Shown here: in pieces, positions 16,522-53,785 of the stretch
Numbering within the stretch: the first letter of the stretch is position 1
How the letters are laid out: the number at the start of each line of letters is the position of its first letter
Sequence record: MZ501052
Source of the DNA: Escherichia phage AugustSocin
Direction: 5' to 3' (one strand)
DNA length: 64,000 nucleotides
Made by a program: the position numbers and the translations under genes
The notes under the pieces: generated by a model
What the model saw: only the letters and a program-made list of their open reading frames with translations
What the model was told of the DNA's origin: nothing
Databases searched by the model: none

Positions 16522-18030
16522 ATGGATATTAAAGTACATTTTCACGACTTCAGTCATGTACGCATCGATTGTGAAGAGAGCACGTTCCACGAATTGAGAG
16601 ATTTCTTTTCGTTTGAGGCCGATGGATATAGATTTAACCCTCGCTTCAGATATGGCAACTGGGATGGACGAATCCGTCTTTTAGATTATAATCGTCTTCT
16701 TCCATTCGGCTTAGTCGGGCAAATTAAAAAGTTCTGTGATAACTTTGGCTATAAAGCCTGGATTGACCCACAAATTAACGAAAAAGAAGAATTATCAAGA
16801 AAAGATTTTGATGAATGGCTTTCTAAATTAGAAATCTATTCAGGAAATAAAAGAATTGAACCACACTGGTATCAAAAAGATGCAGTGTTCGAAGGATTAG
16901 TCAATCGTCGTAGAATTCTTAATCTTCCAACATCTGCAGGTAAATCTTTAATTCAGGCTTTGCTTGCGCGATATTATTTGGAAAATTATGAAGGTAAAAT
17001 TCTTATCATTGTTCCAACAACTGCCTTAACAACTCAGATGGCTGATGACTTTGTTGACTATCGTTTATTCAGTCATGCAATGATAAAGAAAATTGGTGGC
17101 GGAGCATCAAAAGATGATAAATATAAAAATGATGCACCGGTCGTTGTTGGTACATGGCAAACTGTAGTTAAACAACCGAAAGAATGGTTCTCACAGTTTG
17201 GAATGATGATGAATGATGAATGTCATCTTGCTACAGGAAAAAGTATTTCATCTATCATATCAGGTTTAAATAACTGCATGTTCAAATTCGGTTTGTCTGG
17301 TTCATTACGTGATGGCAAAGCCAATATCATGCAGTATGTTGGAATGTTTGGTGAAATATTTAAGCCAGTAACGACTTCTAAATTAATGGAAGATGGACAA
17401 GTAACTGAGCTAAAAATTAATAGTATTTTTCTTCGCTATCCCGATGAGTTCACTACTAAATTAAAGGGAAAAACTTATCAAGAAGAAATAAAAATTATTA
17501 CTGGGCTTAGTAAAAGAAATAAATGGATCGCTAAATTAGCTATTAAGCTTGCGCAAAAAGATGAAAACGCTTTTGTCATGTTTAAACATGTATCGCATGG
17601 TAAAGCTATTTTCGATTTAATTAAAAATGAATACGATAAAGTTTATTACGTATCAGGGGAAGTTGATACCGAAACCCGCAATATAATGAAAACCTTAGCT
17701 GAAAATGGTAAAGGAATAATTATAGTAGCTAGTTATGGTGTATTTTCTACTGGTATTTCAGTTAAAAATCTGCATCACGTTGTTTTAGCGCACGGTGTTA
17801 AATCAAAAATCATTGTATTACAAACAATCGGTCGTGTATTACGTAAGCATGGTTCTAAGACAATAGCAACAGTCTGGGACCTCATAGATGACTGTGGTGT
17901 TAAGCCAAAATCTGCTAATACGAAAAAGAAATATGTTCATTTGAACTATCTTTTAAAACACGGCATTGATCGTATTCAGCGCTACGCAGATGAAAAATTC
18001 AATTACGTAATGAAAACAGTTAATTTATAA
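16522..18030 (+). CDS. uvsW: UvsW DNA/RNA helicase
   Basis: 502 aa, helicase motifs (PTSAGKS, MNDECH), T4 UvsW length. Confidence 0.95.
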   Translation: MDIKVHFHDFSHVRIDCEESTFHELRDFFSFEADGYRFNPRFRYGNWDGRIRLLDYNRLLPFGLVGQIKKFCDNFGYKAWIDPQINEKEELSRKDFDEWLSKLEIYSGNKRIEPHWYQKDAVFEGLVNRRRILNLPTSAGKSLIQALLARYYLENYEGKILIIVPTTALTTQMADDFVDYRLFSHAMIKKIGGGASKDDKYKNDAPVVVGTWQTVVKQPKEWFSQFGMMMNDECHLATGKSISSIISGLNNCMFKFGLSGSLRDGKANIMQYVGMFGEIFKPVTTSKLMEDGQVTELKINSIFLRYPDEFTTKLKGKTYQEEIKIITGLSKRNKWIAKLAIKLAQKDENAFVMFKHVSHGKAIFDLIKNEYDKVYYVSGEVDTETRNIMKTLAENGKGIIIVASYGVFSTGISVKNLHHVVLAHGVKSKIIVLQTIGRVLRKHGSKTIATVWDLIDDCGVKPKSANTKKKYVHLNYLLKHGIDRIQRYADEKFNYVMKTVNL

Positions 18031-18042
18031 GGGCTTCGGCCC
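18031..18042 (+). other. intercistronic hairpin between uvsW and uvsW.1
   Basis: GGGC-TTCG-GCCC immediately after the uvsW stop. Confidence 0.45.
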
Positions 18043-18055
18043 TTTGGAGAAAAAG

Positions 18056-18289
18056 ATGTTACTAGAATTTAAACAATTTCTTTATGAAGCTTCTATTGAT
18101 GAATTTATGGGTAAAATTGCCTCTTGTCAAACATTAGAAGGTTTAGAAGAACTTGAAGCTTATTATAAGAAAAGAGTCAAAGAAACTGAATTAAAAGACA
18201 CTGATGACATCTCTGTGAGAGATGCTTTGGCAGGAAAAAGAGCTGAATTAGAAGATTCAGACGATGATGAAGTAGAAGAAAGCTTTTAA
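18056..18289 (+). CDS. uvsW.1: UvsW.1 small acidic protein
   Basis: 77 aa from ATG at 18056 preceded by GGAG; the track start at 18044 is a TTG. Confidence 0.7.
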   Translation: MLLEFKQFLYEASIDEFMGKIASCQTLEGLEELEAYYKKRVKETELKDTDDISVRDALAGKRAELEDSDDDEVEESF

Positions 18290-18345
18290 ATTAAAAAAAG
18301 GCCCAACCGAAAAGGAAGGGCCAAAACTATAGACTAAAGGTCACA

Positions 18346-27037: not shown

Positions 27038-29095
27038 CTACATTTTGAACTTTTTAGACATTCCGTTGATGTTAACCAAAGAAGCTAAGATTTGAGAAAC
27101 TTCGTTTTCCTCTTCTTTTGATTCTTCTACAAGGAATTGATTAAATCCAGCCATTGGACGAACTTCACCAGTTTCCATCAGATGGTCGCCATCATATACT
27201 GATTCTTCTAATTGTTCAGAAGGAGGAACGATTGTACCTTCGATTAGATACTTGTTATAAGCAGTTTCTTTCATCATGTACGTACTTACTTTATTAATCT
27301 TCAGTAAAATTCCACGCGGCAAAATAACTTCAGCTTCGGATGGAAATCCTGATAAATGACCTGGAACGATAACTTTAACTCGTTCAGCTCCTTTAATTAC
27401 CATACCTACATTAGTTTCAGCGTCTTCATTCGCATATGTAGAATGACTACCCATATGCATTAAATCTTCAGCATCAACTGAACCTTCTCCTTCACCAGAA
27501 AATACTGCTCCGGAATCATCTAAGGCCATATAATTTTTACCATATTCACCGAAGATATTTGGCTTGAGTGAAGTAGATACAAAGTTCTTGAAATAGAACA
27601 TTTTATTTTCTATATTATGACGTAAAGTTTTAAAGGTAACTTCTTGCCCACGATAAAGAGTAGTTCCTGGAGGAAGAACTGAACCTTTAGAAAATGCAGA
27701 ATCCAGCGTCTCAATATGTTTAATAGCTCGTTCCATATATTCTTCACGGGTAGAATCAGGTTTACCTAGAAGGAACGAGTTCATTTCAACATATGAATCT
27801 GCGCAATAATCTTCAATTACATCAGACTCAGCCTGAGTTAATCCTTTTGGAGTTACTTCAGTGCTTGCATATTCATATGCCTGAGCAGCAGATTCATCAA
27901 TTAATTTATAAATTCCATTCATTACAAATTGAATAATAGCTGTCTTTTCATCTGGTGTAGCTTTAGAACCTTTAACTAAATCATTGACAATTTTCTTAAT
28001 AACATCAAAGCTATTAGAAATATTAATGTCAGCAAGATCGCTTAAAATTTTATCAGTTTTATAATCAAAGAATTCTTTATTCTTTAAATATTCTTGAGAA
28101 CCTTGATATGTTATATCGCTCTGCGGCTTGATAGATGGATCGCGTAAACGTGCATGGGCCAATGCAATATGATTTCGGAAGCTTTCGAGTTCATAATCAC
28201 TAGATTTAAAACGAGAAGCACTTCTCATACCACCGATAGCTCCTTTGCTAAAGTTTGAACCAACCTGAATAACGCCAGAGTTCATTGGTCCTTCTGCTTT
28301 ATATACCGGAACTTTAGATTCAAACTCTTGATATTTCTTAGCAGCGAAGCTATCACCCTGAAGTGAAGCATCAACAGTAGAATATTGAGCTTGTGCTGCT
28401 AATCGACGACTAATTTTAGTTTTCTGAATAACAGCTTGATCCGTGCGCTTATCATTTTCTAAAGCAATAGAAGCAGCAACAGCAACAGCTTTAGGAACAG
28501 CATTACCTGTTTTAACGTCTACATAAACATCACCAACCTTTGATTCAACTTTTGTGAATAACTCGGTTGAAATAGGAGGTACACCTGGAATGTCTTCTAA
28601 ATTGGCATTTTTACGGTAAACCATAATATATGCGTACTTTTTATCATAATCCCAGATTTCCTTTAAAAGAACATATCGACCTGCTCCTTTAGTACGTACT
28701 AAACGGTCAGCAATAACTTGCATTTGCCGAGCAGCGCCATTTGTTTTACTTTTTAGTACGCGGAATAAGCATGCATCAATTTTATACTGTTTCATTGTTT
28801 GAAGAGCAGTATCAAAAACAGCATTAATGACGCCAATTGGATTTCCACCCAAGTTTTTAAGCTTAACTAATGATAGTTTCTCATTAACACCTATCATTAC
28901 GATATGCATCATTTTGTCGCCTGGCTTAACGTTTTTATTCGTATCACCGCCAGAGGTGTATGTACAAAATCTAAATCCAGGAAGCACGCTTTCTTCACCT
29001 GCTTGAATAGCAAAAATTTGAGGTATTTTATGCTTAGGATTTAAGTTAACAACCGGCGCCGAAGCGCCGTCAAATAATTCTGTAATAAGTTCCAT
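27038..29095 (-). CDS. Alt-like ADP-ribosyltransferase paralog
   Basis: 685 aa; N-terminus MELITELFD and first ~200 aa similar to the adjacent alt; R (YRGQ), STS (FVSTSL) and E-x-E (SEAEVILPRG) motifs present. Confidence 0.8.
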   Translation of the reverse strand: MELITELFDGASAPVVNLNPKHKIPQIFAIQAGEESVLPGFRFCTYTSGGDTNKNVKPGDKMMHIVMIGVNEKLSLVKLKNLGGNPIGVINAVFDTALQTMKQYKIDACLFRVLKSKTNGAARQMQVIADRLVRTKGAGRYVLLKEIWDYDKKYAYIMVYRKNANLEDIPGVPPISTELFTKVESKVGDVYVDVKTGNAVPKAVAVAASIALENDKRTDQAVIQKTKISRRLAAQAQYSTVDASLQGDSFAAKKYQEFESKVPVYKAEGPMNSGVIQVGSNFSKGAIGGMRSASRFKSSDYELESFRNHIALAHARLRDPSIKPQSDITYQGSQEYLKNKEFFDYKTDKILSDLADINISNSFDVIKKIVNDLVKGSKATPDEKTAIIQFVMNGIYKLIDESAAQAYEYASTEVTPKGLTQAESDVIEDYCADSYVEMNSFLLGKPDSTREEYMERAIKHIETLDSAFSKGSVLPPGTTLYRGQEVTFKTLRHNIENKMFYFKNFVSTSLKPNIFGEYGKNYMALDDSGAVFSGEGEGSVDAEDLMHMGSHSTYANEDAETNVGMVIKGAERVKVIVPGHLSGFPSEAEVILPRGILLKINKVSTYMMKETAYNKYLIEGTIVPPSEQLEESVYDGDHLMETGEVRPMAGFNQFLVEESKEEENEVSQILASLVNINGMSKKFKM

Positions 29096-29098
29096 GAT

Positions 29099-31192
29099 TT
29101 ATCCTTGAACGAACTTGTAAGGCATGTTTGTAATATCTATGCAAGACGCAATAATTCCAAGAGATGATTCTACTTTCTGTTTAATATTTGATGAAACAAA
29201 TGATGCAAAGTCAACTCTGTCTTCTATTTCAATATCACCTGTCATTGCAACCAATTCACCAGTTTCCATTAAATGGTCTCCATCATAGATTACCGATTCG
29301 GTGAGCTCTTCCGTGGTCATAACTTCAGCTTGAATGAGTTTTGTATTATTAGATGTTGTTCCGTCATTATTAGAAGCATCGGTTATTTTATTAACTTTGA
29401 CCATCAATCCACGCGGTAGAATAACTTCAGCTTCTGTTGCTATTCCGAGACTTCCTGGATATACAACATTAACTTTATGAGCTCCATCAATTGCCCATCC
29501 TATTTGAACTTTAACATATTCAGGATTTTCTTTATACGCTCTTATTTCGTTTGGATTAATAGTTATTCCTTCTTCATTTTTATCAACTGTTAATTCATTG
29601 CGAGCTTCTGGTTCTAAAAGACCAATACCAGCATGTGTGATTCCAAAACGTCCAAAAATGATAGGAGTTAAAGAAGTAGATACAAAATTTCTGAAGTAGA
29701 ACACTTTATTTTTAACTAACGCTTCATATATAGGAGCAGTCATACTTTGAGCACGATAAACTGTAATGCCTTCTGGTATACGGTCACCATTTTCAAAAGC
29801 TGAATCTAAGTTATTTATAGCAGATTCAATTTCTTTTTCACTCATTACATCGTATCGTTCTGGATTGTAACGACCTAAAAGAAGATTATTGATGTCAGTA
29901 TATCCTGAACCGCAATATTCTCTAATGCCACGCTTTTGTGATGGAGTATATTTAGAACCATCGCGGGCAATAGTAATATCAATCATTGGACCAGCACCAA
30001 TTCCAGAAAAACTGTAAATCATTCGTTTGAGGAATTTAGTTTTTGCTGCGTTCCAGGAATTTTTAGTTATTTCTTCCCAGACTTCATCTGGTTGTCCTTT
30101 ACGATTTTTATTATGATTAGCAAGCCATTTATCTTTATAATCTTCAAAGAATTGATTTACAGCTGCTGCGTATTTCTCTAAACATTTTATTGAAGTAGTT
30201 GGTTCATTTTTAATTGCATTAAAAATTACTTCTTTAATTTTTTCTGAAACTTCACCGACTTGACTCATTGGAAAGAATTTATAATCATAGTGAAGTTCAT
30301 CTGCCGTTCCTTCAGCAATAATTTTTGCTGCCTTTGTTTTAGAAGCTAATGAATTAATTCCAATTTTCATTTCTTCTGCTTCGGGAATTAAAGGTGCAGT
30401 AGCTGGTTTATTAAAATTGGCTGCTGTAGATTCATACTTCTGGAATAATTCACTTTCAAATCTAGAAGATTCCAATGACTGACTTTGTGCAATTGCTCTA
30501 CGGGAAATTTTAACTTTAACGATTACAGCTTGGTCAGAACGTTTATCATTTTCTTGTGCAATAGATGCTGCAATTGCTTCATTTTTAGTTACTTGAGCTC
30601 CAGTATCTTTATTGATATAAACATCACCGACCTTCGATTCAACTTTAGTAAAGAGTTCAGTGCTAATTTCTGGAACTCCTGGAATGTCTTCTAATGATAC
30701 ATTTTTGCGATGTATAAGAATATATGCATACTTTTTATCGTAATCCCAGAGTTCCTTAAGAAGGACGTATCTGCCACCTGAACGACTACGGATAAGTCTA
30801 TCAGCAATAACTTGAATTTGTCGAGCTTGGCCAGCAGTTTTAGACTTAAGAATACGAAGCATGCAGGCATCAATTTTATATTGACGCATCGTTTGCATTG
30901 CAACAGTAAAAACTGAATTGATATAATTAATTGGGCTTGGACCAAGACCTTTTAATTTAGCAATTGAGCCTTTAGCAGTTAATGTAAAAGGAACAATATG
31001 CATCATTTTATCGCCCATCTTTAAATCGCGATTAGTATCACCTCCAGATGTATAGGTACATAAACGAAAGCCTGGTTGTTCAATTGCATCATCAACATGA
31101 ACTGAAAAAATTTGTGGTATTTTCTTCTTTGGATTTAAGTTTGTAATCGGAAGAGTAGTATCTTCGTCAAATAATTCTGTAATAAGTTCCAT
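29099..31192 (-). CDS. alt: Alt ADP-ribosyltransferase
   Basis: 697 aa; N-terminus MELITELFDEDTTLPITNLNPKKK as I recall for T4 Alt; YRAQ, FVSTSL and TEAEVILPRG motifs. Confidence 0.85.
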   Translation of the reverse strand: MELITELFDEDTTLPITNLNPKKKIPQIFSVHVDDAIEQPGFRLCTYTSGGDTNRDLKMGDKMMHIVPFTLTAKGSIAKLKGLGPSPINYINSVFTVAMQTMRQYKIDACMLRILKSKTAGQARQIQVIADRLIRSRSGGRYVLLKELWDYDKKYAYILIHRKNVSLEDIPGVPEISTELFTKVESKVGDVYINKDTGAQVTKNEAIAASIAQENDKRSDQAVIVKVKISRRAIAQSQSLESSRFESELFQKYESTAANFNKPATAPLIPEAEEMKIGINSLASKTKAAKIIAEGTADELHYDYKFFPMSQVGEVSEKIKEVIFNAIKNEPTTSIKCLEKYAAAVNQFFEDYKDKWLANHNKNRKGQPDEVWEEITKNSWNAAKTKFLKRMIYSFSGIGAGPMIDITIARDGSKYTPSQKRGIREYCGSGYTDINNLLLGRYNPERYDVMSEKEIESAINNLDSAFENGDRIPEGITVYRAQSMTAPIYEALVKNKVFYFRNFVSTSLTPIIFGRFGITHAGIGLLEPEARNELTVDKNEEGITINPNEIRAYKENPEYVKVQIGWAIDGAHKVNVVYPGSLGIATEAEVILPRGLMVKVNKITDASNNDGTTSNNTKLIQAEVMTTEELTESVIYDGDHLMETGELVAMTGDIEIEDRVDFASFVSSNIKQKVESSLGIIASCIDITNMPYKFVQG

Positions 31193-51536: not shown

Positions 51537-52445
51537 TTAAAGGTCATTCAAAAGGTCATCCAGGTCCGTGTCATCAGCACTAGATGAACTGCCAGAGCTT
51601 GAGCTCATAAAATCATCTTCAGTTTTTGTATTGAAGTCATCAACATTGAATGCATCCAAATCATCAGCAACTTTATCAGCTTTCTTAGCAGCAGTTGCTG
51701 CGGCACCGCCCATTACAGCAGTTCCCATAACTTGACCGAATTTAGTATTCAGTTCTTCAAACGATTTGAATTTATCTTTAGAAGTCATTTCAGAAAGGTC
51801 AACCATTTGTTCGAACAGTTCTTTCTGGAAAGATTCATCGTCAATGTTTGGAATCGCAGATTGATTCAGGAATTTAGATTCGTCGTAGTTACTAAAACCA
51901 GAAACTTGTTTAACTTTCAGTACAAAGTTAGCACCTTCCCACGGACAAGTTACATCAACCGGGGTTTCACCCATTTCAACATCAACCGCAATCATCGCGT
52001 TGATTTTATCCCAGATTTTCTTACCGAAGCGGTATTTAAATACTTTACCTTCATTTTCTGGAGCAGCTGGGTCTTTTACTACAAGAATGTTAGCCCAGTA
52101 AGAAGTTTTACGTTTAACAAGACCATACTCTTTATTGTCAGTGTTATACAAATCATTTTTACTGATGTACTGACATACTGGACAAGAATCGTAATCACCG
52201 TAGGTAGATGAGCATGTTTCGATATACCATTTACCATTTTTCTTGAAACCGTGATTTACAAGAAGTGCGAATGGTGCTTGTTCATCATTTTTAGACGGAA
52301 GAAAACGAATTACTGCTTGACCGTTACCCGCATTATCGAGTTTCAGTTTCCACTCGCCTTTATCTTCAGAAGAAAAACCACCTTTATTTCCAGCCAGTTT
52401 AGCCATTTGTGCAGCGAGTTCAGCAGTAGATTTACGTTTAAACAT
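51537..52445 (-). CDS. 32: single-stranded DNA-binding protein gp32
   Basis: 302 aa; matches recalled T4 gp32 ([37 protein letters not shown]...), acidic S/D-rich C-terminus. Confidence 0.97.
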
Positions 52446-52515
52446 TTTTATTTCCTTTTTAATTTAATTAACAGTTGGTGCTATGACACTTTACCTCATA
52501 GCTGGCATAATTCAC
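52446..52515 (-). promoter_or_regulatory. gene 32 mRNA leader (autoregulatory operator: hairpin/pseudoknot region plus A/U-rich tract)
   Basis: minus strand reads GCUAUGAGGUAAAGUGUCAUAGCACCAACUGUUAAUUAAAUUAAAAAGGAAAUAAAAAUG, as I recall for the T4 gene 32 leader. Confidence 0.6.
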
Positions 52516-53130
52516 AATACTCTGGGTCTTCGAGAGGTATCCAACCTGAGTTGAAATACTTTACCATCGATTTAGCAGTTGTATCAGTTATATTTATATT
52601 ACCTTTAACTCTTCGCCATCCAGGAGTTTTACCGTACAGATTAGAGGATAATAATAACACATAATTCTCGTAAGCAATATGAGATAATTTCCAAGACTCT
52701 ATATTAGCTCGTGATGTTTTCCAAGGTCTAAAATCGTCACGGTTCATATAATTAGCCAATCTCATATGCTCTCTAACTTCCGGGTCTTTGGCTGGATGAG
52801 TTTCACCACTCACACCAAATCCGCCGCCAGCATATACCAGATTAAAATAGTCTGGATTATCTCTGGCATTTACTTCAAGTTGGTATTTTCGCTCTGCTTC
52901 AATAACATCCAAATCATCATCAATTTGAATTATTTTAACGCTCGGTTTTTGAAGCATTACCGCATTTAAAAATCTTTTTTGTTTGCACGAACTCCAGTAT
53001 TCCTTTCCGGAAGAGTCATATATTATTCCATTCTCAAATGAGCAATTTAATTTACTGCCGATATAGTATAGTACGGCGGAGTCTTATTTTTGACACGGTC
53101 TTCAAATGTAAACCAATATACTATATTCAT
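52496..53130 (-). pseudogene. frameshifted gene between 59 and 32, possibly a disrupted homing endonuclease (segG position)
   Basis: ATG at 53130 opens a 27-codon frame (MNIVYWFTFEDRVKNKTPPYY...) that stops at 53047; a second frame open from 53083 (..VLYYIGSKLNCSFENG..) continues to 52496; the frames switch at a tandem ACTAT-ACTAT (about 53062-53071). Confidence 0.55.
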
Positions 53131-53131
53131 A

Positions 53132-53785
53132 TTAATACTTGCAAGATTTCACAGTTTCAATGAAAACACTTTTAGCTTTCTGTGAATCAATATTTAAAAT
53201 TTTTCTATAAGCCTTTAACTTTATAGAATAATTATTCCAGACTAAATTATCAGTCTGTTCATCATGTTTATCAATTAAATTTAAAAACGAATCAAGCAAG
53301 ATAAACGTCTCAAACGAAATTATGTTCGATTGCAGAAGTTTAAAAATATAACTTGATTGAACTTTTGGATTATATTCAAAAATTTCTTTAAAAGCAGAAA
53401 CTTCAACTTTTTTACTAAAATAATAAATATTGCGAATATCTTCTTCAAACTTAAATTTAATTTGCTTTAAGCGTCCGATATATTCACGATAAAACACAAG
53501 TGCATCAGCGTCAGAGATGTCACCAATCCAAGCATCTTGGTTAGCAACCAAATTACTTATAAAGATTAAAGCAAGTTCCTTTAATTTATATTTTTCTGAT
53601 AACTTCTGAAAAAAATACTTATCCCTTCGCTTTTGATAAGCGGCATCAGACACCCGCATGCACCAATTATACTTAATAACATCATACTTTCCATTCATAT
53701 GCTGTTTTATCATTAAGTATAATTTATAAACTGATTTACCATCAATGTATCTTTCACCACCAGCAGGCATGCGGAGTTTAATCAT
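53132..53785 (-). CDS. 59: helicase loader gp59
   Basis: 217 aa; matches recalled T4 gp59 (MIKLRMPAGGERYIDGKSVYKLYLMIKQHMNGKYD...). Confidence 0.95.
   Translation of the reverse strand: MIKLRMPAGGERYIDGKSVYKLYLMIKQHMNGKYDVIKYNWCMRVSDAAYQKRRDKYFFQKLSEKYKLKELALIFISNLVANQDAWIGDISDADALVFYREYIGRLKQIKFKFEEDIRNIYYFSKKVEVSAFKEIFEYNPKVQSSYIFKLLQSNIISFETFILLDSFLNLIDKHDEQTDNLVWNNYSIKLKAYRKILNIDSQKAKSVFIETVKSCKY

Follow-up and report, generated by a model that had tools for sequence, protein, structure and literature searches.

Between gene 59 and gene 32 of Escherichia phage AugustSocin (MZ501052), two short minus-strand reading frames are found where phage T4 carries a single gene, segG. The question raised by this locus is whether the frames represent two genes, one gene whose division is functional, one gene broken by mutation, or one intact gene with an error in its sequence. 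It was addressed within the window, that is, the whole stretch of 64 000 nt of this genome that was analysed; all coordinates refer to this stretch.

Gene order and gene identity

The features of the locus are as follows:
53132-53785, minus strand: gene 59 (helicase loader), the intact upstream neighbour, 99.1% to T4 gp59, with its TAA stop at 53134-53132.
52496-53130, minus strand: segG (T4 gene 32.1), frameshifted; 635 nt versus 633 nt in the intact form, from alignment with T4, HY01, a51 and SsoM113.
53047-53130, minus strand: 27-codon N-terminal stub, MNIVYWFTFEDRVKNKTPPYYTISAVN, made up of MNIVYWFTFEDRVKNKTPPYY and the out-of-frame residues TISAVN.
52957-52496, minus strand: 153-codon ORF, equal to SegG residues 58-210.
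51537-52445, minus strand: gene 32 (ssDNA-binding protein), intact; 302 codons, 98.3% to T4 gp32 in a single HSP.

The gene order is 59 > segG > 32, with all three genes on one strand. The start codon of the stub (ATG, 53130-53128) overlaps the stop codon of gene 59 (TAATATG), and its own stop codon lies at 53049-53047; a second minus-strand frame is open from approximately 53083 and includes the 153-codon ORF. This two-frame layout had been described in the initial annotation, and all the coordinates given there proved correct when checked on the sequence.

Judged from its sequence, the locus represents segG, which T4-type phages carry between genes 59 and 32 and which encodes a free-standing GIY-YIG homing endonuclease. 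When two extra bases (TA, see below) are excised, the resulting ORF is identical to T4 SegG (NP_049855) in 209 of 210 residues and to SegG of HY01 and PEC04 in all of them, in agreement with the initial annotation, which placed T4 segG at this position. Comparison with other T-even phages gave the same synteny, with a 633-nt gene annotated at the corresponding place, and the fused protein was assigned to PHROG 7504 ("homing endonuclease", E=1.9e-133). In T4, segG (formerly 32.1) occupies the interval from gene 59 to gene 32; it is a mobile gene, and gene 32 is its target (PMC2988022, Table 1; PMC535899, Discussion). T4 SegG cuts site-specifically in gene 32 of segG-less phages, whose gene 32 homolog is the SegG target, and segG is preferentially inherited in crosses (PMC2988022, Table 1). 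The description of T4 SegG as a free-standing GIY-YIG homing endonuclease goes back to Liu et al. (2003, J Mol Biol 334:13), as cited in PMC2988022 and PMC535899.

Curated profiles were blind to SegG: no Pfam family (including PF01541) and no NCBIfam family was matched at E<=1, and sequence and profile searches of the PDB with SegG gave no match. The SegG family is too divergent for the Pfam, NCBIfam and PDB profiles, and because none of these matched, the GIY-YIG assignment rests on fold, motifs and literature. A search of a large protein collection returned 29 SegG homologs (31-99% identity), in the alignment of which the expected Tyr...Tyr-Ile-Gly...Glu...Asn pattern is present; a loose GIY...YIG-like pattern had been noted in the initial annotation. 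Residues P19, Y22, I23, G24, S25, K26, C29, Y44, S47, E79, N96 and A100 are invariant in this alignment (Y22, I23, G24, E79 and N96 in 28 homologs), and Y5 and R12 are nearly so. The conserved GIY-YIG motif residues, namely the Tyr of GIY, the Tyr-Ile-Gly, the catalytic Glu and the Asn, are accordingly all present in SegG. As to the conserved Arg that follows YIG in the superfamily (R27 in I-TevI), no Arg after YIG is invariant among the homologs.

In the AlphaFold model of a 99%-identical database protein (P0001; pLDDT 90.8), an N-terminal alpha/beta domain (approximately residues 1-100) is followed by a helical C-terminal half, and the catalytic domain is predicted to adopt the GIY-YIG alpha/beta fold; the C-terminal half gave weak HTH-like matches and nothing more. 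The spacing of Tyr...Tyr-Ile-Gly...Glu...Asn in SegG is comparable to that in the catalytic domain of I-TevI (PDB 1LN0), the archetype of the GIY-YIG fold. SegG differs from I-TevI in that it is only 17% identical, has IVY instead of GIY as the first motif, and possesses a longer GIY-to-YIG spacer and a different C-terminal DNA-binding region; moreover, SegG is free-standing, whereas I-TevI is intron-encoded.

Nature and position of the lesion

The window was aligned with T4 (NC_000866.4), HY01, a51 and vB_SsoM_113, four relatives with intact or near-intact copies; in the aligned phages, the gene annotated as SegG / homing endonuclease has a length of 633 nt. A single site within the coding region carries an indel:
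53063-53074, minus strand: site of the +2 nt (TA) insertion, inside TACTATACTATA; the intact form is TACTACTATA, codons Y20-Y21-Y22-I23.

At this site, GTAC--TACTATATCGG in the four relatives corresponds to GTACTATACTATATCGG in the window; the intact form is likewise represented by TACTACTATAT and the window allele by TACTATACTATAT. The intact reading CCG-TAC-TAC-TAT-ATC-GGC encodes P-Y-Y-Y-I-G, and the placement of both extra bases is ambiguous within the microrepeat TAC-TAC-TAT-AT. An uninterrupted 210-codon frame is absent in the window, with the 27- and 153-codon ORFs lying in different frames; excision of TA yields a 210-codon ORF, which differs from that of HY01/PEC04 by one synonymous nucleotide and by no amino acid, and from T4 segG at 13 of 633 nucleotides and 1 of 210 amino acids (the conservative L57V, common to the window, HY01 and PEC04). 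As read from the alignment, the lesion is a 2-nt insertion, which is the parsimonious event. With this single lesion and otherwise one synonymous difference from HY01/PEC04, the event appears to be very recent. The 13 nucleotide differences but single amino acid difference from T4 indicate purifying selection on the intact copies or, alternatively, a very recent spread of these copies.

The initial annotation had identified both the gene and the frame break correctly, and had misdiagnosed the mutation: the break was ascribed to a tandem duplication of ACTAT, removal of one copy of which was expected to give a fusion protein of about 212 residues. The sequence ACTATACTAT does lie at 53072-53063 (minus strand), and deletion of one ACTAT does bring the frames into register, but the product has 209 residues and reads PPYYIG instead of PPYYYIG, with one of three conserved tyrosines lost. 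For the duplication to be the cause, the ancestor must have had a single ACTAT (CCGTACTATATCGG, PPYYIG). A -TAC variant reading PPYYIG is known from a mutant T4 clone, which makes a two-step path (-3, then +5) conceivable. Every intact natural copy examined, however, contains TACTACTAT, Y22 is invariant family-wide, and three tyrosines are present in HY01 and PEC04, the closest relatives of the window at a distance of 1 nt, such that a single +2 step is the more parsimonious path. The tandem itself is without statistical weight, as 79 perfect 5-mer x2 tandems occur in the window versus approximately 89 in shuffled sequence. An origin by 5-bp duplication is therefore considered very improbable.

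Distribution of segG and of the frameshifted allele

Megablast of the region returned 500 Tequatrovirus-type records, 141 of which cover the whole query, i.e., carry segG. SegG is at least 99% identical in 133 phage records; among the matches listed, all high-identity ones apart from that of the T4_7t1 mutant consist of one tblastn piece spanning residues 1-210. Contigs encoding an frd.2 protein identical to that of the window mostly lack segG and have a 99-nt spacer between genes 59 and 32:
approximately 1577-1675 in contigs L023, L024 and L028: segG-less spacer with TTGCTTA, TATAAATA and the T2-type pseudoknot sequence CTGACCAGCTATGAGGTCATACATCGTCATAGCACC.
Homology between segG-less and segG-bearing alleles resumes at CCAGCTATGAGGT. 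As is characteristic of a mobile gene, segG is thus present in some close relatives and absent from others, in which the empty site is defined.

The 153-residue product is called on 75 contig blocks, each call starting at an internal ATG (M58). That such calls might be truncated copies was considered and rejected, with an intact ORF present in 10 of 10 inspected contigs. The intact copies in public contigs are located as follows:
approximately 2830-3462 in contigs L005-L014 and L026: intact segG, with a 210-codon ORF in all 11.
The 153-residue calls are a systematic start-site miscall and no sign of a separate gene, and short public segG annotations of this length should not be read as truncations.

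The frameshifted allele of the window was searched for with a 91-nt query across the site. All 140 of the 140 GenBank phage records matched span 89 nt (best identity 97.8%), and the +TA allele was found in none of them, nor in any of the 11 inspected Logan/ENA/NCBI contigs. The two-frame layout is likewise conserved in no homologous phage among these 140 records and 11 contigs. When IMG/VR, the JGI metagenomes and the GTDB genomes were scanned for the exact pattern of the +TA allele, no match was obtained; these negatives are weak, because the intact pattern, used as a positive control in the first two collections, occurs there just twice (IMG/VR) and once (JGI metagenome contigs).

Other lesions of segG were encountered. 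In a51 (L003), an independent +TC follows GGAAATTA at approximately codon 149, and in IMGVR_UViG_3300045988_128797 (L016) the T-run of AGATTTTT, at approximately codon 53, is longer by one base (+T). The laboratory T4 mutant T4_7t1 (OL964745.1; L019, 401-1080) carries segG with four small deletions (-TAC, -AA, -TTA and -A) and has it annotated as two CDS; its -TAC deletion lies at the same TACTAC microrepeat, a site that may be indel-prone.

In phage homing endonuclease genes, frameshifts are a recognised hallmark, and degenerate examples include the defective I-TevIII of T4 and the frameshifted homing endonuclease genes of ICP1 (PMC10055350); a homing-cycle model has been put forward for such genes (PMC2988022, section 16). 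Like these, segG of the window is a selfish nuclease gene that is variably present among relatives and inactivated by a small indel, with independent damage to the same gene in other isolates. It differs from them in having a single, very recent lesion and no further decay, and in that an essential gene has its promoters embedded in the remnant, which would constrain the loss of this DNA.

Mutation or sequence error

A rival reading is that the phage carries an intact 633-nt segG and that the extra TA is a consensus error introduced by sequencing or assembly. Of more than 150 copies inspected, only that of the window has the allele, for which no independent sequence provides a second instance; the extra bases fall in a low-complexity TAC/TA microrepeat, and the otherwise pristine state of the gene, i.e., the absence of further decay, fits an artefact equally well. 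On the other hand, a 2-nt insertion outside a homopolymer is an untypical platform error, and independent segG frameshifts exist in other phages. The integrity of the surrounding sequence was assessed by tblastn of 87 T4 genes, translated from the corresponding part of T4, against the window. Approximately 75 have a counterpart, and every counterpart is a single full-length HSP, with the exception of segG and uvsW; segG is the only unexplained frame break in 64 kb, without a coherent alternative layout. This speaks against a generally indel-prone assembly, but not against one isolated error. One report (PMC11017572) describes many apparent bacterial pseudogenes as technical artefacts, which was counted in favour of an error. 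On balance, an artefact is regarded as unlikely, and this phage probably carries the known gene segG inactivated by a 2-nt insertion of its own, that is, an ordinary pseudogenised homing endonuclease gene.

For annotation, it follows that the locus should be entered as a segG pseudogene, or flagged for re-sequencing, and not as two hypothetical proteins. The gene segG itself is already known, and the significance of the finding reaches little beyond annotation; if the mutation is real, it adds one further natural case in which a phage homing endonuclease gene has reached the degeneration stage of its life cycle.

Consequences for the protein product

In the window, the catalytic motifs are not located on one polypeptide. 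The stub ends in ...PPYYTISAVN, with YIG destroyed, and retains only Y5 and R12 of the conserved motif residues; the 153-codon ORF retains E79, N96 and the helical C-terminal domain in the other frame, and lacks Y5, R12, Y22-I23-G24 and K26. With the insertion inside YIG and the motifs divided between the pieces, and given what these residues are known to do in GIY-YIG enzymes, neither the stub nor the 153-codon piece is expected to be an active nuclease.

The following course of events is proposed. The private insertion of TA into TAC-TAC-TAT-AT would shift the frame within the invariant Tyr-Ile-Gly motif, and translation from the ATG coupled to gene 59 would end after 27 codons, leaving the remaining 188 codons out of frame. 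Without an active endonuclease, SegG-driven homing and the exclusion of gene 32 markers would be lost in mixed infections, so that segG-less relatives should no longer have the gene 32 region of this phage forced upon them; the phage would presumably be otherwise unaffected, since segG is dispensable.

Two ways in which the split might be functional were also examined, namely a programmed -1 frameshift restoring SegG, and production of a 153-residue fragment, started at M58, as a nuclease-dead DNA-binding protein. A -1 shift would indeed bring the frame back. However, in a scan of the 84-nt stub, the usable overlap yielded no heptamer of the form X_XXY_YYZ, and A-site slippery strings occurred solely ahead of a frame-2 stop or at the frame-0 stop; with the slippery site missing and the layout not conserved in relatives, programmed frameshifting was rejected. 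As to the fragment, anti-SD pairing is slightly better at the internal ATG (-3.0 kcal/mol) than at the true start (-0.2 kcal/mol), and gene finders prefer this ATG even in intact genes. Real genes in the neighbourhood nevertheless pair far more strongly (-5.6 to -7.1 kcal/mol). A functional split is hence scarcely credible.

Just as slight is the chance that the frameshift was selected rather than neutral, and that it converted segG into a nuclease-dead module from which the DNA-binding half of 153 residues is made from the internal ATG. If this were true, the C-terminal half would bind either at gene 32 itself or at the promoters of this gene that lie inside segG, and the fragment would be a regulator or a protector against SegG of co-infecting phages.

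Putative gene 32 expression signals within segG

Under the preferred reading of segG as a pseudogene, the DNA of the gene may still serve its downstream neighbour. The following signals lie within or overlap segG:
52670-52677, minus strand: match to the MotA-box core, TTGCTTAC, with TTATTAT 13 nt later; putative site of the gene 32 middle promoter.
52591-52598, minus strand: match to the T4 late-promoter consensus, TATAAATA, 146 nt upstream of the gene 32 ATG; putative site.
52480-52502, minus strand: stem (GCTATGA...TCATAGC) of the pseudoknot in the gene 32 translational operator; the segG stop codon TGA (52498-52496) is part of its 5' arm.

Both TTGCTTAC and TATAAATA are invariant across the aligned phages; matches to the late consensus number 20 in the window, versus 8.9 expected. 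A scan of the region for sigma-70-type promoters gave a chance-level result (five found versus 4.1 expected). The literature places the middle and late promoters of gene 32 inside segG, an arrangement that promotes the retention of segG (PMC2988022, section 9), and describes an overlap of the pseudoknot with ORF 32.1/segG (PMC535899, Fig. 3 legend and Discussion). The overlap of the 3' end of segG with the gene 32 leader, already remarked upon in the initial annotation, is seen in the window as well, where the TGA lies in the GCTATGA arm. An Rfam scan of 52300-53300 returned no family, and the pseudoknot is apparently matched by none; because of this, its presence rests on sequence and literature. 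The window shares with T4 SegG the location between genes 59 and 32, 98% nucleotide identity, the embedded late-promoter match, the MotA-box-like site and the pseudoknot overlap, and differs from it in the +2 nt at codons 21-22 that split the ORF.

With the premature stop lying upstream of these signals, the expression of gene 32 should be protected from polar effects. The dead gene may have been kept because its DNA holds the middle and late promoters of gene 32 together with the 5' arm of the operator pseudoknot; it would then be a further case of a dead selfish gene held in place by embedded host promoters.

In the gene 32 operator (52446-52470, minus strand), one AATTA/UUAAA unit fewer than in T4 is found, in the unstructured part; this form is common to the window, HY01, a51, SsoM113 and the segG-less alleles.

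Other observations in the window

The set of homing endonuclease genes is unlike that of T4. In tblastn of T4 proteins, segD (100%) and segE (98.5%) were found to be intact, and mobE, nrdB.1 and I-TevI gave no match in the whole window. At 27047-29095 (minus strand), a full-length second alt-like paralog is present (41% to T4 Alt over residues 1-679), at the position of which T4 has only the remnants alt.-1 and alt.-2; the main alt gene (29102-31192) is only 71% identical to T4 Alt.

The uvsW region (16522-18290, plus strand) is broken near 18028-18060 into uvsW, ending in a TAA stop, and uvsW.1, with a GGGCTTCGGCCC hairpin and a GGAG...ATG restart between them. The T4 RefSeq entry has a fused uvsW of 587 residues, relative to which the window contains one extra T. 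The arrangement of uvsW and uvsW.1 looks like a coherent two-gene layout and not like damage.
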